In this document: positions 3,291 through 20,288 of the stretch, in pieces
Numbering within the stretch: position 1 is the first letter of the stretch
How the letters are laid out: every line of letters begins with the position of its first letter
Source: Candidatus Fraserbacteria bacterium
GTDB taxonomy: Bacteria; Bipolaricaulota; Bipolaricaulia; RBG-16-55-9
DNA: 29,441 bases
Direction: 5' to 3'
NCBI GenBank assembly: GCA_037442925.1
Contig: JBBIPG010000024.1
Coordinates: forward strand, 1-29,441
The notes under the pieces: generated by a model
Seen by the model: only the letters and a program-made list of their open reading frames with translations
Database searches by the model: none
What the model was told of the DNA's origin: nothing
Translations under genes and position numbers: made by a program

Positions 3291-6157
3291 GACGGTGGTG
3301 GATTCTTCTGATCTACCCGCTCAGCCTTCTCGGCTGGGCTGCCATAGCCGTACCAGCAGAGCCTGTCTATCCCCATTACACGTTGACAGTCACGTTTGAC
3401 CCCAAGCGACACACGATCAGCGGCGACGAGATCGTAGAGTATGTCAACGATGCGACGACCCCCTTGAACGCCCTCTACTTCTTGTTGTACCCCAACTACG
3501 AGCGCGAACCCAATCCCTATCTGGAAGAGAGCCAGTTGGATGCCCTCTACCCGGGAGGATTCAATCCGGCCTCGATGAGAATTCACGCCGTGAATGACGC
3601 AGCGGGAAACCCGCTGTCATATGAACTTATGGAGGGTCCCGCCATCTCTCAGACGTATTCGCTCCAAGATACGCTCCTGCGAGTCAAACTTCCGCAGCCG
3701 CTCGCTCCCGGCGCTCAAGTGAAGCTGGTCATTCGCTTCACCACGACATTCCCTCAGACGCTTCGCGGCGATGAAGGGTACTATCGGGAACTGCATACCT
3801 GGCGATTTGGCTGGAACCCTGTCGCGATCTCCGCCCAAGAGCTCATCGAGGGGGAGTATATCTCTTCAGAGCGCCCATACTACAAACAGATCTTCCCTGC
3901 CGCCCTCTATGATCTCACCTTAACCCTGCCCAAGGAGTACCAGGCAGCCATCGGGGCCGATCATCAAGAGGTTCAGGAGGAGACAGACAAAGAGAAGACG
4001 ATTCACGCGCTGAGTGCCGTCCCTGTTCGCTCGGTGCCCTTAAGTCTCAGCCCGGATTTTCGCGTGTATGAGTTCCCGGATCCCGAGATTCCCATCCTCG
4101 TTTATTATCTACCCGGCCATGAGGCTGCTGCGCGGCTGATCGCCAGCTATGCCATAGAGAGCTTAGACTACTATCGAAAACGCTGGGGCGAATATCCCCA
4201 TCGGCGGCTCGTCGTTGCGGAGACAGCCTCCTCTCAGGCGAGCTTCTCCGGAGCCACAGGAGATGTGCTCGTTCTACTCAACCAGCAATTCTTCAGTGAG
4301 AAAGATCTCGCGGTTCCCAACATCATCGACCGTTTGCTCGATGACGTCATCGCCCACGAGGTGGCACACCAGTGGTGGGGGATTGGGATCAGCTCCGATC
4401 TGAACGCGGAGAATTTCCTGAGCGAATCCTTTGCCCAATACTTCTCGATCACGTATTTCGAAGAGAAGTATGGGGCGTTTGAGCCGAACGTCTTCCAGTT
4501 GGAGCGCGATGGACTTCTGGAGAGATTCGTGGAATCCCAGTTTGGGTACATCAACCTGCGCGAGCACCTGCAGGGGGAACTGCCCTACATGCTGGCTGTG
4601 AAGAACGAGTTCGATGAGGCGATCATCAAGCCCCAGCAGGACGTGAAATTCCTCAACTACTCGGGCGAGCGCCTGTACAGCAAAGGCTATCTCATGCTGC
4701 GGGCACTGCGCGGCCTCATCGGAGGGGAAGCGATGGATAAGCTCTTGGTCGCCTCTTATGAGCGCTTCCTGCGACGGGTTGTGACCGTGGAGGAATTCGA
4801 AGCCTTGGCTCAAGAGATCTCAGGACAGGACCTCCGTGAGTTCTTCGAACAAGCCCTTCACAAAGATGAAGCAGAGGAGGGGCGCGCTCCCTATGCCGAT
4901 TATGGCGTCGACCGAGTCGACTCGCGCCGAACAACCGATGGCAAATATGAGTATATCGTGTATCTCTTCCGGCGAGGGGATCTGCGGTTGCCGGTGGAAG
5001 TTGTGGCTGTGGATCGCACAGGAGAGCGGCACAAGCAAGTCTGGAAGGTCGACGACCAAGAGTCAGGCAATTTTGTGATGGTCTTTGACACATCCAGTGC
5101 TCTCTCTCAAATCGAGGTCGATCCGGAGAGTTGGACTCCGGATATCGACCGGCTGAACAACTACTACGTACTTGAGGGTTCGTTCTTGTTCCCCCGCAAG
5201 GTGCAGATCCTCGCTACCGGGGAGAACGCTCTCCCTCTCGATGCCTACTTGATCCGCTTCAATCCCTTCAGTCAGTTGTTAGAGGGCGGGTATCTCTTGG
5301 ATCACCGCTGGCTCTTGGGGCCGGGTTTTGCCGCGTTCATAAAGGACCTGGGGCGCGGAAGTTCCATAAGCGCCCTCGCCGGACTGATGCCGGATCGACA
5401 GATCATCGGCCAGCTCGCTTGGCAGAAGACCTTCTACTCCTATCCTGAACTGGGAATCCTTGGAACGTTTTGGGAAGCAACGGACCAACTGGAAATCTCA
5501 CTGCTTCGTCGACCCGATTCCACAGGAATTCCATCCCTGGACAAACAACTGGGCGCCACGGGTCGGATTGCGAATGTGGTGGGTGTGAGTTGGATTCACC
5601 AAGAATCGCTCCGACAACGTCTGGCTGGGTGGGCTTCGATTCTGAATGATCCCGAAGCGTTTACGCGGATGGAGCTGGGTGGCTGGAAAGATGTTCGCCT
5701 GGGGCCTGACGTTCATCTGGGTGCTCGTTTGGCATTCGGCTGGGGGCAAGGAGATCTGGGGATCTTCCACTTTAACTTGTCTCCACTAAGCAGCTTCGAT
5801 AAAGTGTCAGACTTCCCCTTTGTGGGGAGCGTCCGGTTGCTGGGAGAACTCGATTTCACCTTTCCCTTTCAACGCGACATGAGGTACAACTTGCTCAACA
5901 TCGCGATGCTTCAGGATATTGACGAGCGGATCAGGCTACGTTTTGGCGATACGTGGGATCGTCTGGATCAAGTGGATCTCGGAAATCTTGAAACGCTCAA
6001 GTTAGAGCTGGGCTTCGAGATGACGTTTAGCGGCAGCACGTTGGGTGGGCTCTTCCCGTGGCAACTCACGGTAGGTGTGGCATATCCCCTGGGGCCGATT
6101 GAGCAAGAAGACCGCCAAATCAAGCAATACATCAGCGTCTGGACGCCCTTGTTCTAA
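3287..6157 (+). CDS. Secreted M1-family (gluzincin) zinc metallopeptidase with a C-terminal beta-strand-rich domain
   Basis: Signal peptide; HEVAH-x18-E zinc motif; YSKG catalytic Tyr motif. GTG at 3287 preferred over ATG 3281 because the SD AAGGAGG is 7 nt from it and it overlaps the upstream stop (GTGA). Confidence 0.88.
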   Translation: MRRWWILLIYPLSLLGWAAIAVPAEPVYPHYTLTVTFDPKRHTISGDEIVEYVNDATTPLNALYFLLYPNYEREPNPYLEESQLDALYPGGFNPASMRIHAVNDAAGNPLSYELMEGPAISQTYSLQDTLLRVKLPQPLAPGAQVKLVIRFTTTFPQTLRGDEGYYRELHTWRFGWNPVAISAQELIEGEYISSERPYYKQIFPAALYDLTLTLPKEYQAAIGADHQEVQEETDKEKTIHALSAVPVRSVPLSLSPDFRVYEFPDPEIPILVYYLPGHEAAARLIASYAIESLDYYRKRWGEYPHRRLVVAETASSQASFSGATGDVLVLLNQQFFSEKDLAVPNIIDRLLDDVIAHEVAHQWWGIGISSDLNAENFLSESFAQYFSITYFEEKYGAFEPNVFQLERDGLLERFVESQFGYINLREHLQGELPYMLAVKNEFDEAIIKPQQDVKFLNYSGERLYSKGYLMLRALRGLIGGEAMDKLLVASYERFLRRVVTVEEFEALAQEISGQDLREFFEQALHKDEAEEGRAPYADYGVDRVDSRRTTDGKYEYIVYLFRRGDLRLPVEVVAVDRTGERHKQVWKVDDQESGNFVMVFDTSSALSQIEVDPESWTPDIDRLNNYYVLEGSFLFPRKVQILATGENALPLDAYLIRFNPFSQLLEGGYLLDHRWLLGPGFAAFIKDLGRGSSISALAGLMPDRQIIGQLAWQKTFYSYPELGILGTFWEATDQLEISLLRRPDSTGIPSLDKQLGATGRIANVVGVSWIHQESLRQRLAGWASILNDPEAFTRMELGGWKDVRLGPDVHLGARLAFGWGQGDLGIFHFNLSPLSSFDKVSDFPFVGSVRLLGELDFTFPFQRDMRYNLLNIAMLQDIDERIRLRFGDTWDRLDQVDLGNLETLKLELGFEMTFSGSTLGGLFPWQLTVGVAYPLGPIEQEDRQIKQYISVWTPLF

Positions 6158-6169
6158 GGGTCTTGTGTC

Positions 6170-7072
6170 ATGGCTTCTGCTGGCGAGAGACTACAAATCG
6201 TCCGCACGATCCACGAAGTCCATGAGGCCATCGCCATGGCACGGCGTGCTGGCCAACGCATCGGCTTCATCCCGACCATGGGATATCTACACGAAGGGCA
6301 CGCCAGCTTAATTGATCTTTGTAAGAAGCACGCCGATTATCTGGTAGTGAGCGTCTTTGTCAATCCCACGCAGTTTGGCCCCCAAGAAGACTTCACCCGA
6401 TACCCAAGGGATCTTGTGCGGGATCGTACGCTCATCAAGGCGCATGGGGCGCATCTGCTCTTCGCTCCTTCGGTGGAAGAGATCTATCCCGAAGACTCGT
6501 GCATTCGCTTTGCCATTCTAGATCTTGCGGATCATCTCTGCGGTCCGAAGCGACCCGGGCATTTCCAGGGAGTACTCCTCGTCGTCTCGAAGCTCTTCCA
6601 CATCGTTCAACCCGATGTGGCCGTCTTTGGTCAGAAAGATCTTCAGCAGCTTGTGATCATCCAACACCTTGTGAGAGACCTCAATTTCCCGATTCAGATT
6701 GTGGCAGGTCCCACGGTGCGGGAGCCGGATGGCTTAGCCATGAGTTCCCGCAATTCGTATCTTTCGCCCAAGGAACGTGAGGCCAGCACGGTGCTTTATC
6801 GTGCGCTCCAGCAGGGCAAAGGACTCATAGAAGCCGGTGAACGTCGCGCCTCGGCTGTGACGAAGGCGCTCACGAATACGATCTCTCAGGTGCCATTCTC
6901 TCGACTTGACTATATCGAGATTGTCGAGGTAGAGCGTCTCCAGCCGATCGAAGAGATTGAGGGCCGCATCGCCATAGCTCTTGCCGTCTATATCGGACAG
7001 ACGCGCTTGATTGATAACATCGTCCTTGAGGTTCGTGATGGCAAAGTCCGTGAAATCCCATCTCTCACCTGA
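6170..7072 (+). CDS. panC: Pantoate--beta-alanine ligase
   Basis: PTMGYLHEGH, SVFVNPTQF, RPGHFQGV, FGQKDLQQ, REPDGLAMSSRN, RLIDN motifs. Confidence 0.97.
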   Translation: MASAGERLQIVRTIHEVHEAIAMARRAGQRIGFIPTMGYLHEGHASLIDLCKKHADYLVVSVFVNPTQFGPQEDFTRYPRDLVRDRTLIKAHGAHLLFAPSVEEIYPEDSCIRFAILDLADHLCGPKRPGHFQGVLLVVSKLFHIVQPDVAVFGQKDLQQLVIIQHLVRDLNFPIQIVAGPTVREPDGLAMSSRNSYLSPKEREASTVLYRALQQGKGLIEAGERRASAVTKALTNTISQVPFSRLDYIEIVEVERLQPIEEIEGRIAIALAVYIGQTRLIDNIVLEVRDGKVREIPSLT

Positions 7073-7496
7073 GGAAGTTGTCACTGAAAGTGCTGACGAA
7101 ACCAGGGTGTGGGGGCAGAAGTTTGCCAAGCAACTCCATCCCGGTGACTGCCTCTTGTTGATCGGCGAGTTGGGGGCGGGCAAGACCACGCTGGTGCAGG
7201 GCTTGGCGGAAGGGCTCGGGCTTGATCCCAAAGAGATCATCTCGCCCACGTTTGTGCTCATTCGTGAGCACGAGGGGAAGATCCCTCTCTATCACATCGA
7301 CGCGTATCGCATTCAAGACCCCAAAGAATTGCTCGAAGTTGGGCTGGCAGAGTACTTTGAGCGACCGGGCATCACGGTGATCGAATGGGGCGAGAAGGTG
7401 CGAGAGGTTGCGCCCCGCCATGCTATAGAGATTCGGCTGGAGATTCTCGAGGGAGATCGACGTCGGATTCAACTCATTCGTCCGAAGAAATCTTGA
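7038..7496 (+). CDS. tsaE: tRNA threonylcarbamoyladenosine biosynthesis ATPase
   Basis: GELGAGKTT P-loop, SPTF, HIDAYR, IEW motifs. ATG at 7038 has GAGG 6 nt upstream. Confidence 0.95.
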   Translation: MAKSVKSHLSPEEVVTESADETRVWGQKFAKQLHPGDCLLLIGELGAGKTTLVQGLAEGLGLDPKEIISPTFVLIREHEGKIPLYHIDAYRIQDPKELLEVGLAEYFERPGITVIEWGEKVREVAPRHAIEIRLEILEGDRRRIQLIRPKKS

Positions 7497-7497
7497 T

Positions 7498-7526
7498 TTG
7501 CAATCGTTTCTGACGAAGGGCATACT
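7498..7526 (+). promoter_or_regulatory. Putative sigma70 promoter giving a leaderless transcript (TTGCAA-N17-CATACT-N6-ATG)
   Basis: The -10 element ends 6 nt before ATG 7533 and no SD sequence is present. Confidence 0.6.
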
Positions 7527-7532
7527 GAAACC

Positions 7533-7739
7533 ATGGACGTGCGCGAATTGAACGAAAGCGTGATGCCAAGCGAGGTCTTTGCCGCCGTGTCGTATGATCC
7601 CGAGACGCGAGAAGTAGGAATTCAATACGGCTATGTCTTGCTCAGTCTCCCGCGGGAAGACTTCGAGAGCTTTCTCAGTCTCTTGCTCGAAGCCCAAGAG
7701 AAGTTGCCTGGCAAGCCAAGGGGAAAGGGGGAACCGTGA
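7533..7739 (+). CDS. Small hypothetical protein (68 aa), predicted beta-beta-beta-alpha
   Basis: Fills the gap between tsaE and the Rad52 gene, has its own promoter candidate, and its stop overlaps the next start (GTGA). Confidence 0.75.
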   Translation: MDVRELNESVMPSEVFAAVSYDPETREVGIQYGYVLLSLPREDFESFLSLLLEAQEKLPGKPRGKGEP

Positions 7740-8476
7740 CCGCTGAGAAGAAGCAGGAGCTCTTTGCAGCAGGCGCAGGCAAGACGACTCCGTCTGAGCT
7801 GCCGGCCCCGAAGATCGCATTTACTCCCGAACAGATCGAGATGCTAAAGAAGCCGATTGAACCCAGCCGTGTCCAGCGGCGTGTCGGATTCCGGGGTCAG
7901 CAATTTGAATATCTGCCCATCCATGACATCATCGAGACGGCCAATCGGATCTTTTCTTTCGGCGGCTGGCAGCGCGAAATCCGTCGCTTGGAGAAGGTCT
8001 ATCAAGACGAGACCGAGGGTGTGTATAGCGTGGGCTATCTCTGTGAGTATCGCGTCCGCGTGGGCGACATCATCCACGAAGATGTGGGCTTTGGCTCCTC
8101 CTCGAATCAGCCTGATCTTGCCCAAGCGCACGAAATGGCCGTCAAGGGAGCTGTCTCGGATGCGATCAAACGTTGCTTCCGAGCGTTTGGGGATCAATTT
8201 GGGCTCAGTCTCTACAAGAAGCATGAGCTGGAGGAAGTTGCCCCCAGCGGGCCGCGGATCGCCACCGAAGCTCAACTGGGGAGGCTGCGCAAGACCCTCC
8301 GAGCGCACAACCTCAAGGAAGAAGCGTTACTCGAGTACATCAAAGCGAAGATGGGAAGCGAGTTTTCTAGACTCGAAGAGTTGCCCTTGAAAGTCGCCAG
8401 CCGTGCCATAGAGCGATTCACTCAAGACGAGGCTGCTTTTGTCAAAGAGATTCAAGAGATCGCTCAAGCGAAGTAG
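7736..8476 (+). CDS. Rad52/Rad22-family single-strand annealing protein
   Basis: YL-x6-ETANRIFSFGGW, HEDVGFG and AVKGAVSDAIKRCFRAFGDQFGLSLY match the Rad52 core; helical C-terminal tail starting ATEAQ. SD AAGGGGG upstream of the GTG start. Confidence 0.9.
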   Translation: MTAEKKQELFAAGAGKTTPSELPAPKIAFTPEQIEMLKKPIEPSRVQRRVGFRGQQFEYLPIHDIIETANRIFSFGGWQREIRRLEKVYQDETEGVYSVGYLCEYRVRVGDIIHEDVGFGSSSNQPDLAQAHEMAVKGAVSDAIKRCFRAFGDQFGLSLYKKHELEEVAPSGPRIATEAQLGRLRKTLRAHNLKEEALLEYIKAKMGSEFSRLEELPLKVASRAIERFTQDEAAFVKEIQEIAQAK

Positions 8477-10044
8477 TTTCTGGGCGTCATTCTCGATAAC
8501 GCCAACTGAATTCCCAAAAGAGTAGAGAGGTTCAGAACAAGAGGCATGATGACAAGAGAGGCCAATTGCGTTGCTCGGTCGATCACAACATAAGCTCCCG
8601 GCAGCTGGGCGAAGAATCGAGCGAGTTCCATTAAGCTTATGAGTATCGCGCTCTCAATGCTACCAAGTGCCACGGCAACAGGATCAAGAAAGATCGTGGC
8701 TGCGATCAAGACGAGCACACCCAGCCACAGCGCGATGGTCGCCAGAGGCACTACGACCAGATTCGCCAGCAAAGCGCCCAAGTAGATGCGATGGAATTGA
8801 TAAGCCAGAATCGGGGCGACCGCGAGCTGAGCTGCAAGAGAAACGAGTACGAAAGCAACAGTCAGCTCCGCCAATCGAAATGAGACTCGCTTCGGTAGTG
8901 ATGAAGCTACATTCCAGCGCACGCGTAGGCGCTCGCCCTGCTCTTGAATGAGAGGCAAAGCCAACTCTACTGCCATGATAATTCCAGCTGTGGCGGCGAA
9001 GCTCAACTGGAAACTGACATCGAAGAGCGCTTGAGGTGTCCAGATGCAGATCACGAGCGCTGCGGCACACAGCCCTTGAAGCGGATCAATCCAGTCTTTG
9101 AGAATCCAGCTCCTCTCCGCCATGACCCAGCCCACAGTGACAAAAGCAAACATGAGCGATGCTCGGACGAGGCTGACTTCAAAGCCGACGAGCAATAGAT
9201 ATGCGAACACCAGTGGGATGAGAGACACGTAGATTTGGCTGACAGAGAATCGAAACGATCTAAGTGTTCCCCAGAAAAGCCCGAGTAAGATTCCCAGATT
9301 GAGACCGGAAACGGCTAGGACATGCATGACACCGGCGTCCCGAAAGCTCGCCTCCACTTCTTCGCTGAGATAAGCTCGCTCTCCAAAAAGCAAGCCCTTC
9401 AGGAGCCCGCTGGCTGCTGGAGATACAGAGCGATCGATCAGCTCGAAAATCTGTCGCCGTGTTTGATAACCCCAATCCCAGATCACATCGCCTCGATGTG
9501 TGGCCTTCTGCTGGATCTGGCGAGCGCTCCAGAGACTGCCTATACCCCAGATGTTTCGATTCAGCAGATACTCTCGGTAATTGAAGTCTTCAAACTCCCA
9601 GGGGATCTCGAAGCGTGCCTCGATCTCCAATTCGTCTCCGTAGTCAATCAACTCGTATTCCCCGTTTGGGTGGTAATAGAAGATCTGAAGCCGACCTGGC
9701 CATCTTGGGGGCTGAAGAACGAAACTGCTTCGCTCCGGACGATGATCGGGGTAACTGACGACAATCCCGCGCACGCTTTTTAGATTTTCAAGTAGCGGGT
9801 ATAGCTGCTCTACCGGAATTCGAGCTTGAGAATAAACAAGTGCTCCTAAGGCCGTAAGCAAAAGGAGAACTGCCGAAGGCCACTGGGTGTACTGGAAGAG
9901 GTAGAGAATGCTTGCGAGAATGAGCAGCCCAAGGACGATCAGCCAGATGTGGAGCGAAGATACCCAGGGACTGACTTCACGTCCCAGCAGGATTCCCAGC
10001 ATCCAAGCAAACGCTATGAAGAACAACGGTCGCCGTGGCACCAT
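8464..10044 (-). CDS. comEC: ComEC/Rec2 competence DNA-uptake channel (DUF4131/OB plus competence domains, no metallo-beta-lactamase domain)
   Basis: FNYREYL, GLLFGE, FRDAGVMHVLAVSGL, SLVRASLM, SFQLSFAAT, LLANLVVVP motifs; many TM helices. Confidence 0.93.
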   Translation of the reverse strand: MVPRRPLFFIAFAWMLGILLGREVSPWVSSLHIWLIVLGLLILASILYLFQYTQWPSAVLLLLTALGALVYSQARIPVEQLYPLLENLKSVRGIVVSYPDHRPERSSFVLQPPRWPGRLQIFYYHPNGEYELIDYGDELEIEARFEIPWEFEDFNYREYLLNRNIWGIGSLWSARQIQQKATHRGDVIWDWGYQTRRQIFELIDRSVSPAASGLLKGLLFGERAYLSEEVEASFRDAGVMHVLAVSGLNLGILLGLFWGTLRSFRFSVSQIYVSLIPLVFAYLLLVGFEVSLVRASLMFAFVTVGWVMAERSWILKDWIDPLQGLCAAALVICIWTPQALFDVSFQLSFAATAGIIMAVELALPLIQEQGERLRVRWNVASSLPKRVSFRLAELTVAFVLVSLAAQLAVAPILAYQFHRIYLGALLANLVVVPLATIALWLGVLVLIAATIFLDPVAVALGSIESAILISLMELARFFAQLPGAYVVIDRATQLASLVIMPLVLNLSTLLGIQLALSRMTPRNYFA

Positions 10045-10088
10045 CTCATCACCGAGATAAGTGGATATCGGTGTTACTACTGTTATAT

Positions 10089-10118
10089 AGTTTAGATGAA
10101 CTTTCGGGGGCTTGTCAA
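10089..10118 (-). promoter_or_regulatory. Putative comEC promoter (TTGACA-N18-TAAACT)
   Basis: Consensus -35 and a good -10 in the leuS-comEC intergenic region. Confidence 0.6.
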
Positions 10119-10152
10119 GGCTGTCGGCAAAGCGTGCTTGTTTTTGGTGGGT

Positions 10153-12726
10153 TCACTTGACGACCACGTTCACCAGCCGCCCCGGCACCACGATCACCTT
10201 CTGGATTTGCTTGCCATCAAGCCTCTTTTCAACCTGCTGAAGAGCACGCTTCTCCAATTCCGACTGATTCTGACTTATGTCGACCGATACGATCATGCGA
10301 TCGCGCACTTTGCCGTTGATCTGGATGATGATCTCGCACTCTGCACTCTCTAAAGCATTGGGGTCGAACGCAGGCCAAGGCTGATCCAACACAGCGCCGT
10401 CGTGTCCCATGACTCGCCAAAGTTCTTCTGCGATGAAGGGCGTAAAGGGCGACACGATGAGGATCAAGTCCTCTAGTGCGCGCTTGACCATGGGCTTATT
10501 CAACTTTCTGGAGTGCGATGTGGTGTAATCCGAAAGCTCGTTGGTCAGCTCCATAATGGCAGCGACAGCCGTGTTAAAGTGAAACTGTTCGATGTCTTCT
10601 GTGACGGCTTTGATCGTCTGATGGAGCTTCTGCCAGACTTTCTTCTCTCGCTCCGTGAATGTGTTGGGATTGAGATCGCTTGCATCGACATCAGCGAGTT
10701 TGCGGGTATGAGAGCAGACAAGTACCCAGAGGCGATTCAAGAACCGAAAACTGCCGCGCACGCCCTCATCGCTCCACTCGATGTCGCGGTCCGGTGGTCC
10801 CATGAAGAGCGTGTAGAGTCTCTCGGTGTCGGCCCCATACTGGTCTATCACTTCTTGGGGTGAGACCACGTTAAGATGAGATTTGGACATCTTCTGCAAG
10901 TCCGTCTGTAGCTCACGTCCGCAGTGTGGACAGCGATTGCCCTCTTGCACCTCAGGGGGAGCAATCCAGTTATGCTCCGAACAGCGATACGAAGTGTACT
11001 CGATCATCCCCTGTGTGAAGAGGCGCAGAAAAGGCTCATCGAACTTCACATGGCCCATATCGCGGAGAGCTTTTGTGAAGAAGCGCGAGTACATCAAGTG
11101 TAAGATCGCGTGTTCCACGCCACCCACATACTGATCCACAGGAAGCCATTGATTCACGGCTTCTGAGTCGAAGGGCCTGTCGGCATCATGTGGTGAGATA
11201 AAGCGCAGGTAGTACCAGCTGGAGTCCACGAACGTGTCCATCGTATCCGTGTCGCGCTTGGCTGGGCCGTGGCACTTCGGGCATGTCGTCTGATAGAACT
11301 CCGGGATCTCGGCCAGACCTTTCTTGCCGATGAAGGGGACATCCGGCAAGCGTACAGGCAATTCCTCTTCGGGCACGGGGACAGTCCCACACGTGGGGCA
11401 GTGGATCATGGGGATGGGCGTGCCCCAGTAGCGTTGGCGTGAGATGAGCCAGTCGCGCAACTTGTACTTGATCGCGAATCGCCCTTGCCCGCGCTGCCGC
11501 AAATACTCCCCAATCTTGTGGAAAGCTTCTTGGCTTGTGAAGCCATTAAACTGGCCGGAATTGACGAGCTGGCCTTCTCCCTCGAAGGCCGCTTGGAGTT
11601 CGCCCTTGTTTTCCTCGCTCTCGATGACTCTACGAATCTTAAGTCCATACTTTCGGGCGAATTCGAAGTCTCTGGTGTCGTGACCGGGAACACCCATAAT
11701 TGCGCCTGTGCCGTACTCCATCAAGACGTAATTGGCAATGTAAATCGGGATCTTCTCACCGCTCATGGGGTTGATGGCATACCGGCCCGTGAAGTAGCCT
11801 TCCTTCTCGACGTCCGCGGCACCGCGAGCGATCTCGCCTTGTTGGAGTGCCCTTTGGATGAACGCCTGCATCTCCTCGCGACGCTTGGGATCGCGCTCCT
11901 GTGCTATGAACTCTTCAATGAAGGGATGCTCCGGTGCCAACGCCATAAAGGTCACGCCGAAGATCGTGTCCGGCCGCGTCGTAAAGATCTTCAGCTTGTG
12001 CGGGGAATTCTCGATGGCAAACTCGGCTTCCACGCCTTCGCTACGCCCGATCCAGTTGCGCTGCATTTTTTTCACTCGGTCCGGCCAGTGTTCGAGCTTC
12101 TCTAGATCTTCCAAGAGCTGGGGGGCATATTGTGTGATCTTGAAGAACCACTGAGTGAGCTTCTTCTTAATGACAACAGAATCGCAGCGCTCGCAATGAC
12201 CATCGATGACTTGTTCATTGGCCAAGACCGTCTCGCAGCCGGGGCACCAGTTGGCGATGGCCTCCGCTCGATATGCAAGGCCATTCTTATAAAATTGCAG
12301 GAAGAGCCACTGATTCCAGCGGTAGTACTCCGGCTCGCAGGTGCGTATCTCGCGATCCCAGTCGTACTCGATGCCCCAGGCGTGGAATTGTCTTTTCATC
12401 CCTTCGATGTTGGCAATGGTCCAATCCCGTGGGTGGGTCTTATTCTCAATCGCGGCGTTCTCAGCGGGCAGGCCGAAGGCATCAAAGCCCATCGGGTTGA
12501 GGACTTGGAAACCGCACATCTTCTTGTAGCGGGCGAACGCGTCGCCGATGATGTAGTTACGTCCGTGGCCGACATGGAGAACGCCGGAGGGGTAGGGGAA
12601 CATATTGAGGTAGTAGAATTTTTGGCCAGGGTTCTTCGTGTTGACGGCAAAGAAGCCGTGCTCACGCCAGAAGTCGCGCCATCTCTTCTCGATCTTCTTG
12701 AAGTTGTATTTAGCTATCCTTGGCAT
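10153..12726 (-). CDS. leuS: Leucine--tRNA ligase
   Basis: [13 protein letters not shown] (HIGH), TTRPDT editing domain, [32 protein letters not shown] 12726 has SD GAGGTGA 8 nt upstream. Confidence 0.98.
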
Positions 12727-12803
12727 AATCCAGTTCACCTCATGCGCAATTGCTGTACTGGCTTTGTTCCTAGTTGGTTCTTGCTCTTAGGGTGGATTGA
12801 TGG

Positions 12804-18152: not shown

Positions 18153-20288
18153 TCATGTGACACGTAGCTCCTCGAAGAACGCGGTTACATCGGCCGTCGG
18201 ACGATGGCTACCATCGTGAACCATGCGCTTTGCTGGAGGAGTCTCGCGATAGAACGGGATTCGCTGCGAGATGCGCTCCTCATACGTTGAGGTCGCTTCG
18301 TTCTTCCAGAAGATCCCAATGGGAATGCGATCGCCCCACTCCAAAGCCCGCTCGACTACCCCTGCGAGTTTATCTTGGATTTGTTCGTCACTCATGCCGG
18401 GCCTGACGACGGGATTGAAGCCTTGCTCTTCGAGCTTATAGACGCGGGGAATCGGCTTGCCCTGTTCGTTCAGCCGGTCCAGGCCACCATACCAGTCTTT
18501 CGTGTTGATGTCGTTGTACGTTGGACAAGGTTGCAGGACATCAATAAACGCGGAGCCCTTATGCTCGATGCCTTGCTGGATGAGGCGAATGAGATGAGGA
18601 ATGTCAAAGGCATAGCCGCGCGCGATGAACGTATATCCTGCGGAGAGCGCCAGTAAGAGAGGATTGATCCCTTGATTCACGTTGGGCTGTGGCAGACTCT
18701 TTGTCTGAACTCCCAGCTTGAGCGTCGGTGATGCTTGACCCTTGGTAAGGCCATACACCCCGTTGTTGTAAAGGACATACGTGAGATCGACGTTGCGCCG
18801 TCCGGCGTTGACAAAGTGACCGGCCCCGATGCCCAGTCCATCGCCGTCGCCGCCCACAGCGATCACCGTCAGCTCTGGATTGGCCAGCTTGGCTCCGATG
18901 GCAAAGGGGAGCACCCGGCCGTGCAGCGTGTGAGTTCCGTAGACCTTGACATAGTGTGCAGTCTTTGCGGAGCAGCCAATTCCCGAGAAGAGGGCTATCC
19001 GATGGGGCTCTAGCTCCATTTGGCTTAGGGTCATTTGAATAGAATTCAATATCCCGAAGTCTCCGCAGTTGTGTAGGATGGCGTTCCCGCTCACGTAACA
19101 CTGAACATCTTCAACCTCCAGATTCCAGACTTCCCCGTCGTATTCGAAGCTATCGACCTGGGCCACGGGCACCATGACGAAGCGATGGAGTTGGTCGGCA
19201 TCGGTCACATCCCGCAGGCATTCCTTGACGAAGACCGTCGACGGCGGCTTTCCCGAAGGAAGAGTGCGCCTCGGCAACCCAAGAATCTCTGCCAGGCGCG
19301 GAAAATCCCTCTTTCCCATCACATAGATGGCATAGGATGTCTGATGGATGCCCGAAGACTTCGAGGTGTGGATGGATGGCGCAATCCCCTGACGCAGGAG
19401 GAGGAGCTTCATCTGTTCGCAGAGCGTCTTGGAGATTGTCTTATAGTGAGCGCGAGGTCTAGTGGAATCCACCCAGCCATCGCCGCGCCACAGCCCCACC
19501 AGTAGCTCCCACTGCTTCTGCAAGGGCAGAAGCATCATGAAATAGGGGATCCGCTTGTTTGCTGCACCGCTACCGAACCACTCTCGAAAGGCGCGCGCCA
19601 GCCGTGAGGAGTTCACGTAGATGCTCACCTGATGTGACTCCGGCTTCTCCTTCACGATCGCTTCGAGTCCGAAGAGTCGATGAATAATCTCTTTGAGATC
19701 TTCCACGTACTCTCGCTCCTCGATATGAAAAGAGAAGCAGACGGCGGCATCGATCCCGCCTTTTACAGCCGACCGGGTATCGATCCACCCTTCGGCCAGA
19801 TAGTAGCCAGTCAAGCGGAGCAACTCACCGGAGACCTCCACTTCCTCTGGCAATGGAGTGCTACGACGATCCATAGGGAGTTTCTTCGGCAATGGGAGGC
19901 GTTCGACGTCTACGATCTCCGAGGGGATGGGGTAGGCCACGTAATCCCTCTTGCGAATGCGATCGGCTCGTTCCCAGATCAGCTCGAAGCGTTCATTGTG
20001 TCGCTTGGGATGCAGGCGGCGGGCAATGAGCACCGGGTGCTCCGGGGTGAGGACCGTCTCGCCAAAGCATTTCGCCTTCACACGATACATCTTGCCCAGA
20101 TGGCGATGGCGATAGACCTCGGTCACGCGATGGTAGTGTCCATCGAGCCCCAGCACGTGGTCCCCGACTCGGATCTGTTCAATGGGTTTGAGATTCGGAT
20201 TCGTGTGAATGGGAGTCTCCGGTAGCACACAGCCGGGACACCAGTTGTTGTGAACGTCTGTCTTGTAGTCTTGCACTTTACGCGCCAT
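18153..20288 (-). CDS. korB: 2-oxoacid:ferredoxin oxidoreductase beta subunit, intein-containing (323 aa after splicing)
   Basis: Removing the intein restores WCPGCGDFGIL; also SGIGCS, HTLHGR, GGDGD...NNGVYGLTKGQ TPP motif and QPCPTYN. Substrate specificity cannot be read from the sequence. Confidence 0.93.
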   Translation of the reverse strand: MARKVQDYKTDVHNNWCPGCVLPETPIHTNPNLKPIEQIRVGDHVLGLDGHYHRVTEVYRHRHLGKMYRVKAKCFGETVLTPEHPVLIARRLHPKRHNERFELIWERADRIRKRDYVAYPIPSEIVDVERLPLPKKLPMDRRSTPLPEEVEVSGELLRLTGYYLAEGWIDTRSAVKGGIDAAVCFSFHIEEREYVEDLKEIIHRLFGLEAIVKEKPESHQVSIYVNSSRLARAFREWFGSGAANKRIPYFMMLLPLQKQWELLVGLWRGDGWVDSTRPRAHYKTISKTLCEQMKLLLLRQGIAPSIHTSKSSGIHQTSYAIYVMGKRDFPRLAEILGLPRRTLPSGKPPSTVFVKECLRDVTDADQLHRFVMVPVAQVDSFEYDGEVWNLEVEDVQCYVSGNAILHNCGDFGILNSIQMTLSQMELEPHRIALFSGIGCSAKTAHYVKVYGTHTLHGRVLPFAIGAKLANPELTVIAVGGDGDGLGIGAGHFVNAGRRNVDLTYVLYNNGVYGLTKGQASPTLKLGVQTKSLPQPNVNQGINPLLLALSAGYTFIARGYAFDIPHLIRLIQQGIEHKGSAFIDVLQPCPTYNDINTKDWYGGLDRLNEQGKPIPRVYKLEEQGFNPVVRPGMSDEQIQDKLAGVVERALEWGDRIPIGIFWKNEATSTYEERISQRIPFYRETPPAKRMVHDGSHRPTADVTAFFEELRVT
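19068..20231 (-). mobile_element. Intein (388 aa) with LAGLIDADG homing endonuclease
   Basis: Block A CVLPETPI (Cys1, codon 20), block B TPEHP, block C LTGYYLAEG, block E LVGLWRGDG, block F VWNLEVED, block G ILHN followed by Cys+1. Confidence 0.96.

Follow-up and report, generated by a model that had tools for sequence, protein, structure and literature searches.

We analyzed a 29,441-nucleotide (nt) stretch of contig JBBIPG010000024.1 (assembly GCA_037442925.1), from a Candidatus Fraserbacteria bacterium of the Bipolaricaulota, and refer to this whole stretch as the window. The subject is a rad52-family gene whose 3′ end meets that of comEC. The source genome is 2.07 Mb long and 94% complete, and its closest named relatives are metagenome-assembled genomes (MAGs) labeled "Candidatus Fraserbacteria," "Bipolaricaulota," or "Acetothermia." The gene is chromosomal and present in a single copy, and we consider it likely, at rather better than even, that its product is a cellular single-strand annealing protein tethered to SSB, the protein that binds single-stranded DNA, and repairing resected ends, its adjacency to comEC being inherited gene order. 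A preliminary description of this DNA had proposed both a domesticated chromosomal annealase and a partnership with ComEC; the first part is supported, and the second is not supported as a functional link. The features at the locus are as follows (ORF, open reading frame; aa, amino acids).

7498..7526, plus strand: predicted sigma-70-type promoter (-35 TTGCAA at 7498-7503, 17-nt spacer, -10 CATACT at 7521-7526), from an alignment of upstream regions
7533..7739, plus strand: small ORF ("small68"), 68 aa, family not assigned; the GTGA at its stop overlaps the GTG start of rad52
7736..8476, plus strand: rad52-family gene, 246 aa, GTG start (Pfam match, AlphaFold2, Foldseek)
7736-7813: Rad52 residues 1-26, of which residues 1-25 are disordered and carry a conserved (D/E)LF motif
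7814-8224, plus strand: Rad52 annealing core, residues ~27-163
Rad52 residues 164-171: linker, low model confidence
8249-8473, plus strand: Rad52 C-terminal helical domain, residues 172-246, closest to the C-terminal domain (CTD) of lambda Red-beta
8464..8476: 13 nt shared by rad52 and comEC where they converge at their 3′ ends, from ORF coordinates
8464..10044, minus strand: comEC-like gene, 526 aa, with DUF4131 and Competence domains (Pfam and NCBIfam matches)
7011-7496: tsaE, the gene 5′ of the small ORF
10153-12738, minus strand: leuS

A Rad52-type core joined to a predicted C-terminal helical domain

The protein matches the Pfam family Rad52_Rad22 (PF04098) over residues 35 to 168 (E value = 1.7e-34; 119.4 bits against a cut-off of 20.3). 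The gene is flanked by the housekeeping genes panC, tsaE, and leuS, no phage, integrase, or transposase family was found among the 26 window ORFs scanned with Pfam, and GC content is flat across the gene (0.54 to 0.55). The preliminary description was therefore right in reporting a clear Rad52/Rad22 core amid housekeeping genes and free of phage genes, as it was in reporting a 13-nt overlap with comEC, which lies at 8464-8476. TIGR00607 was also matched (E value = 1.4e-26), with 92.9 bits falling under the model cut-off of 224.8, as was PHROG 26464, annotated as a DNA repair protein (3.3e-19). A phmmer search against PDB sequences retrieved yeast Rad52 (8g3g; E value = 7e-20) and human RAD52 (E value = 5e-17) over residues 36 to 167/185, and several related proteins are named "RAD52 family DNA repair protein" by NCBI.

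The AlphaFold2 model, built from a 42-sequence alignment, has a mean predicted local distance difference test (pLDDT) score of 85.8, with the core above 90, and this predicted core has the beta-sheet and hairpin fold of the RAD52 N-terminal domain. Foldseek matched it to the human RAD52 N-terminal domain with an E value of 3.5e-15, a target template modeling (TM) score of up to 0.87 to 0.93, and a root mean square deviation (rmsd) of 0.8 to 1.7 Å in several chains; further matches were to Mgm101 (1.8e-6) and to Sak of phage 80-alpha (1e-4). The DNA-binding site of human RAD52 is given as R55, Y65, K152, R153, and R156 (PMC4718542). In the phmmer alignment these groove residues correspond to R49, Y59, K145, R146, and R149 of the present protein. 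Alignments of 18 and 42 sequences show each of them to be either invariant or conserved in no less than 90% of rows. Ahead of the core, 8 of 10 Bipolaricaulota rows in the first alignment carry an N-terminal LF motif, with LL in one row and no such motif in another. The (D/E)-L-F motif could be a short docking motif, e.g., for the sliding clamp.

The C-terminal domain is specific to the lineage and has no Pfam match even at an E value of 10. Its profile matched 8 proteins in 1.84 billion representatives, one of them another divergent Rad52 and the others uninformative, and Atlas scores of no more than 0.88 were treated as leads only and not accepted for its identity. Folded alone from 22 sequences (pLDDT = 84.5), the domain is modeled as four helices, for which the top six Foldseek matches in the PDB were all lambda Red-beta CTD (8tfu, 8tg7, and 6m9k; query TM score [TMq], 0.66 to 0.71; rmsd, 1.7 to 2.9 Å). 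In a VIA-align comparison with 48,161 chains, Red-beta CTD ranked first and second (65/70 and 63/67 target residues aligned; 15 to 16% identity), with Z scores of 9.2 and 8.7 that lie below the value of about 13 under which matches of helical bundles can reflect a common arrangement; the next match was an L20-like ribosomal protein (Z = 6.1). Two independent searches thus place the modeled domain (residues ~171 to 237) structurally closest to Red-beta CTD, which we take as a good lead. Red-beta CTD is described as binding both lambda Exo and the nine residues at the C-terminal end of SSB (PMC6393309). The single host SSB here (140 aa) ends in an acidic C terminus, ...GDEEVPF, and a YqaJ-type exonuclease was not found in the source genome at its completeness of 94%.

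Distribution, ancestry, and the accompanying repair genes

With the protein as query, a match was found in 23 of 40 relatives (24/41 with the source genome), near full length, at 53 to 87% identity and in at least five families; given such full-length conservation, the gene is not a chance ORF. Across the phylum, PF04098 was present in 23 of 184 genomes, all of which belong to a single order or to one family that is sister to it. By family, it was found in 4/8 f1 genomes and in addition in the source genome, in 1/1 of f2, 3/4 of f3, 13/18 of f5, and 1/1 of f6, and it was not found in f4 (0/3), f7 (0/1), f8 (0/74), f9 (0/50), f10 (0/19), or f11 (0/4).

A wider scan of bacteria and archaea, with one genome per species, yielded 136 relatives. 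The Bipolaricaulota-type group stands at 52% identity or more, and the next tier, at 31 to 44%, comprises Campylobacterota, Dehalococcoidia/Chloroflexota, and a few Pseudomonadota. The core was also placed in a quick maximum-likelihood tree, with 148 columns and with 75 distinct rows left once the fragments L048 and L082 had been removed and six identical rows collapsed (Deinococcus/DdrA and eukaryotic rows are not included). In it, the Bipolaricaulota/Fraserbacteria rows form one group on a long stem, supported by a Shimodaira-Hasegawa-like approximate likelihood-ratio test (SH-aLRT) value of 95, and its three subclades follow the family labels. As a tentative sister group, phage SV1 joins on a long branch with a support value of 46. 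Phage relatives reach at most 39% identity and align over the core only, with none of 58 records covering 80% of the query.

Pfam assigned only housekeeping families to 91 neighbor ORFs at seven related loci, where no phage or mobile families were found near rad52; phage families were found neither at these loci nor in the window, and with YqaJ not found either the location is not that of a phage exonuclease-annealase module. A copy in the outgroup Arcobacter sits amid an integrase, DUF932, Gp157, DUF2958, a helix-turn-helix (HTH) protein, and a Rep-like gene, and an outgroup Dehalococcoidia copy adjoins an rve transposase and a group II intron. Mobile settings were thus seen in the Campylobacterota and Dehalococcoidia relatives. 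Together, the single copy, the one clade (SH-aLRT = 95), and the housekeeping context at every Bipolaricaulota locus examined support the domesticated chromosomal annealase of the preliminary description. As a side observation, in Dehalococcoidia/Chloroflexota the Rad52-family gene is present two or three times per genome in nearly identical form (loci L058-L060, L085-L086, L093-L094, and L097); the helical C-terminal region of these copies aligns with the C-terminal domain described here, and the transposase and group II intron adjoin in the one locus scanned.

The source genome encodes RecO (RecO_C, 90.5 bits), DprA, ComEA, one ComEC, SSB, and RecJ, together with two full-length RecA genes (G000:C5:14202-14987 and G000:C22:1916-2707; 415 and 405 bits). 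The dprA and recA genes that the preliminary description had asked about are therefore both present, and with DprA, RecA, RecO, and ComEA all in place the standard transformation route is not missing. Two ideas were dropped on these grounds, namely, that Rad52 stands in for RecO or DprA and that DprA or RecA is absent. Of 41 related genomes, 17 have RecA in duplicate; every one of these belongs to family f1, f2, f3, or f5 of the Rad52-bearing order, and no f4 or f6-f10 genome that was searched has two copies.

PF12705 (PDDEXK_1), the hallmark of AddAB, RecB, and AdnAB, was not found in the source genome, nor was Ku. Across the phylum, PF12705 was present in 150 of 184 genomes (f9, 50/50; f8, 69/74; f10, 16/19; f11, 4/4; f7, 1/1), mostly in frames of ~1,000 aa, so that it is near-universal in f7-f11, but it was not found in most genomes of the window's order. 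The single f9 protein examined combines a UvrD/PcrA-like helicase with a nuclease end resembling Cas4. Three of the 23 Rad52-bearing genomes (G002, G008, and G023) have a PF12705 match, only in frames of 186 to 252 aa, and an AddAB/RecB-type helicase-nuclease was found in none of the 23. Within the order, long AddAB-type frames were seen in two genomes, both lacking Rad52: G003 has a Gram-positive-type operon of AddA and AddB, above the NCBIfam cut-offs for both and the only bona fide pair checked there (L122, G003:C16), and its congener G007 has the same 1,191-aa PDDEXK_1 frame. This complementary occurrence of Rad52 and AddAB is suggestive.

Proposed role and the place of the gene beside comEC

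On the reading that we favor, an SSB-tethered cellular annealase, the N-terminal core would assemble into rings, and its basic groove (R49, Y59, K145, R146, and R149) would bind single-stranded DNA (ssDNA), allowing complementary strands to be annealed. The C-terminal helical domain, with its predicted likeness to Red-beta CTD, would have as its partner a nuclease or the acidic ...DEEVPF tail of SSB, and docking on SSB would give access to SSB-coated ssDNA. The role would be the annealing repair of double-strand breaks or gaps resected by RecJ, in a lineage in which no AddAB/RecBCD-type helicase-nuclease was detected.

Several observations weigh against this reading. The likeness to Red-beta CTD comes with weak Foldseek E values (0.13 to 0.93) and 16 to 19% identity, the model has four helices against the three-helix bundle of Red-beta, and the VIA-align warning on helical bundles makes the likeness a good lead rather than proof. 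Thirteen genomes of the order lack Rad52, six of which also lack any PF12705 match, and the Rad52/AddAB complementarity reflects very few independent events among kin genomes, many of them MAGs that are 60 to 90% complete. With RecO, RecA, and DprA present, nothing obviously requires an extra annealase. Finally, DdrA, the one studied cellular bacterial homologue, is described as an end-protection protein (PMC515370).

This last point leads to the alternative of a DdrA-like protein that caps 3′ ssDNA ends against nucleases after severe damage and catalyzes no annealing. DdrA is described as a chromosomal Rad52 homologue that attaches to 3′ ssDNA ends and guards them against nuclease (PMC515370), and in Deinococcus radiodurans, used as a control, PF04098 was likewise found and PF12705 not found. 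However, all five groove residues of the annealing-proficient human RAD52 are conserved in the present protein, and the core is so similar to Rad52 of yeast and humans that plain phmmer detects the relationship. We therefore regard end protection without annealing as unlikely.

The alternative raised by gene order is a transformation helper, an annealase that protects or anneals the ssDNA imported by ComEC in parallel to DprA/RecA. ComEA, ComEC, and DprA are all encoded in the genome, the comEC gene being the only one with a Competence domain, and in principle the replication fork could be the place where an SSB-tethered annealase anneals imported ssDNA, just as oligonucleotides are annealed by phage proteins of this kind. 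In addition, rad52 is translationally coupled to the small ORF, the conserved neighbor of comEC across the class. We examined 22 species-representative Bipolaricaulota-type loci, 20 of them informative, in which the arrangements were as follows.

Small ORF and rad52 converging on comEC: 6/22 loci, in three families
Small ORF and rad52, with no comEC in the flank: 1/22 loci
comEC, small ORF, and rad52 dispersed over 6 kb: 1/22 loci, in a fourth family
rad52 followed directly by ychF, with no comEC in the flank: 12/22 loci
Cut by contig ends: 2/22 loci

The convergent arrangement in three families and the three genes within 6 kb in a fourth speak for the transformation helper, but in 12 of the 20 informative loci rad52 is followed by ychF with no comEC nearby, and only 6 of the 20 are comEC adjacent. 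Most relatives thus carry the gene unlinked to comEC, an outcome that the preliminary description had itself named as speaking against its proposal. The constant neighbor of comEC is instead the small ORF, which abuts comEC directly, with no rad52 in between, in six of eight further loci. Of 41 related genomes, 33 have this ORF, and among these are 12 of the 17 in which Rad52 was not matched. Convergent orientation also means that rad52 and comEC share no transcript, and a metallo-beta-lactamase (nuclease) domain was not detected in this ComEC with Pfam or NCBIfam, another point against the helper. We consider a role in transformation decidedly improbable, and the functional ComEC link of the preliminary description is left unsupported. 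Relatives of ComEC in the class are of a length similar to its 526 aa.

The small ORF accounts for the contact between the two genes. It has 18 invariant columns among eight homologues. In the window and at loci L107 and L110-L114, spanning at least five families of the class, an ORF of 60 to 70 aa with the motif EV.xQYGYVxLSLPxEDF converges on comEC with or without rad52, the 3′ ends abutting or overlapping, and the flanking genes vary among these loci. In G005, a genome of the same family (L107), the order panC-tsaE-small ORF/comEC-x-leuS is that of the window minus rad52 and with a 270-aa ORF added before leuS. As the small ORF/comEC pair is conserved and rad52 lies inside it in part of the order, the rad52-comEC contact follows from this placement, and the position of rad52 beside comEC is probably inherited gene order and not a working partnership. 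An obligate partnership of the small ORF with Rad52 was also rejected, since the ORF is present in the 12 relatives without a Rad52 match mentioned above and, in family f5, lies apart from rad52. Searches of Pfam, PHROG, NCBIfam, and PDB sequences gave the small ORF no match that was accepted; the candidates set aside were uteroglobin fusion constructs in the PDB (E value = 0.011), CesT (E value = 0.24), and Atlas leads of no more than 0.86.

A predicted promoter element upstream, visible in the alignment, would drive the small-ORF/rad52 pair. Its TTGC and CATA.T are invariant and keep a fixed spacing in all seven aligned upstream regions, from three families, and the surrounding DNA is unconserved. 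Because the candidate has only 8 of 12 consensus matches, it was not listed by a generic scan for promoters and terminators, which over 5800-10400 found no excess over shuffles (3 versus 2.1 and 3 versus 4.3, respectively). The -10 element ends 6 nt before the ATG of the small ORF, which would leave the mRNA with little or no leader. The generic scan found no terminator-like site between rad52 and comEC, and where no terminator separates comEC from the small ORF, transcription from the conserved small-ORF promoter would run antisense into comEC.

A third alternative is a recombination mediator that loads RecA on SSB-coated ssDNA, as yeast Rad52 does with Rad51, possibly for one of the two RecA paralogues. 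The second RecA gene in the source genome, and in the 17 genomes of families f1, f2, f3, and f5, would suit such a function, and a domain predicted to bind the SSB tail would be no less apt in a mediator than in an annealase. On the other hand, RecO is present, two RecA genes are likewise seen in G005 and G015, which lack Rad52, a RecA-binding motif was not identified, and no linkage between rad52 and recA was seen in the loci examined, which leaves the mediator highly improbable. That the gene is an inert leftover of an old phage or mobile element, without host function, is hardly credible: its nearest relatives outside the clade do lie in mobile contexts, phages do carry related cores, and its distribution within the order is patchy, but it is conserved over its full length (52 to 87% identity, at least five families), its functional residues are invariant, its promoter is conserved, and it is single copy with no mobile genes nearby.

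The SSB-tethered annealase thus remains our preferred reading, and it may be extended to the order as a whole. In this extension, one Bipolaricaulota order would have rebuilt its break repair, with no AddAB, a duplicated RecA, and as a core factor a eukaryote-like Rad52 bearing a Red-beta-type SSB-docking domain, so that Rad52-dependent repair would have a counterpart in bacteria, and Deinococcus DdrA would be joined by another, independent case. We offer this extension tentatively and consider it rather doubtful. If the AddAB complementarity holds on complete genomes, bacteria would have swapped the machine for end resection and RecA loading for an annealing route more than once.

Two other genes of the window deserve mention. 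LeuS was dropped as a yardstick of vertical descent, as LeuS identities clash with taxonomy: the window LeuS is 77 to 80% identical to that of family f5 and of the same-genus genome G001 and 60 to 66% identical to that of other f1 genomes, which suggests either that LeuS has been exchanged or that the order has two types of it. At 18153-20288 on the minus strand, the thiamine pyrophosphate (TPP)-binding (beta) subunit of a 2-oxoacid:ferredoxin oxidoreductase contains an intein with a LAGLIDADG homing-endonuclease domain, and the matching beta subunit at related locus L112 aligns only outside the intein part.

Comparison with known annealing systems

Cellular, non-phage bacterial Rad52 proteins have barely been studied beyond DdrA. 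A catalogue of the bacterial Rad52 family is described as comprising 1,178 models, some of them eukaryote-like (PMC11783212), and our literature search found no paper pairing Rad52 with Bipolaricaulota or Acetothermia. The clade offers a small, tractable model of how Rad52-type annealases reach SSB-coated DNA, and the protein is a candidate recombineering tool for organisms with a fitting SSB tail. A ComEC partnership is tempting but is a weak inference from gene order alone, which the present comparison corrects.

DdrA of D. radiodurans (DR0423) is likewise a chromosomal, non-phage bacterial member of the Rad52 family and is described as a radiation-induced end-protection protein (PMC515370). 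The Sak-type annealases of phages and mobile elements (Streptomyces phage SV1 gp34, Sulfitobacter phage NYA-2014a, enhanced biological phosphorus removal [EBPR] podovirus 2 gp56, and Campylobacterota islands) have the same core, at 36 to 44% identity, and share a two-part build of an annealing core and a C-terminal partner-binding part. Their genes, however, lie in phages or beside integrases, DUF932, Gp157, transposases, and group II introns, whereas rad52 here has housekeeping surroundings and no partner exonuclease, and the Campylobacterota copies have a DUF5710-type tail instead of a helical C-terminal domain.

Lambda Red-beta CTD (6m9k, 8tfu, and 8tg7) is likewise the C-terminal domain of an annealase and is the best structural match to the C-terminal domain described here. 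The two have 15 to 19% identity and no profile match, and the present domain sits on a Rad52-type core, not a Red-beta-type one; its binding of SSB or of a nuclease is a prediction from this likeness. Eukaryotic Rad52 (human and yeast) and mitochondrial Mgm101 belong to the same Pfam family as the present protein, and their fold superposes on its predicted core, in which the five groove residues are kept. The bacterial protein, at 246 aa, does not have the long C-terminal half of eukaryotic Rad52 and carries the compact helical domain in its place.

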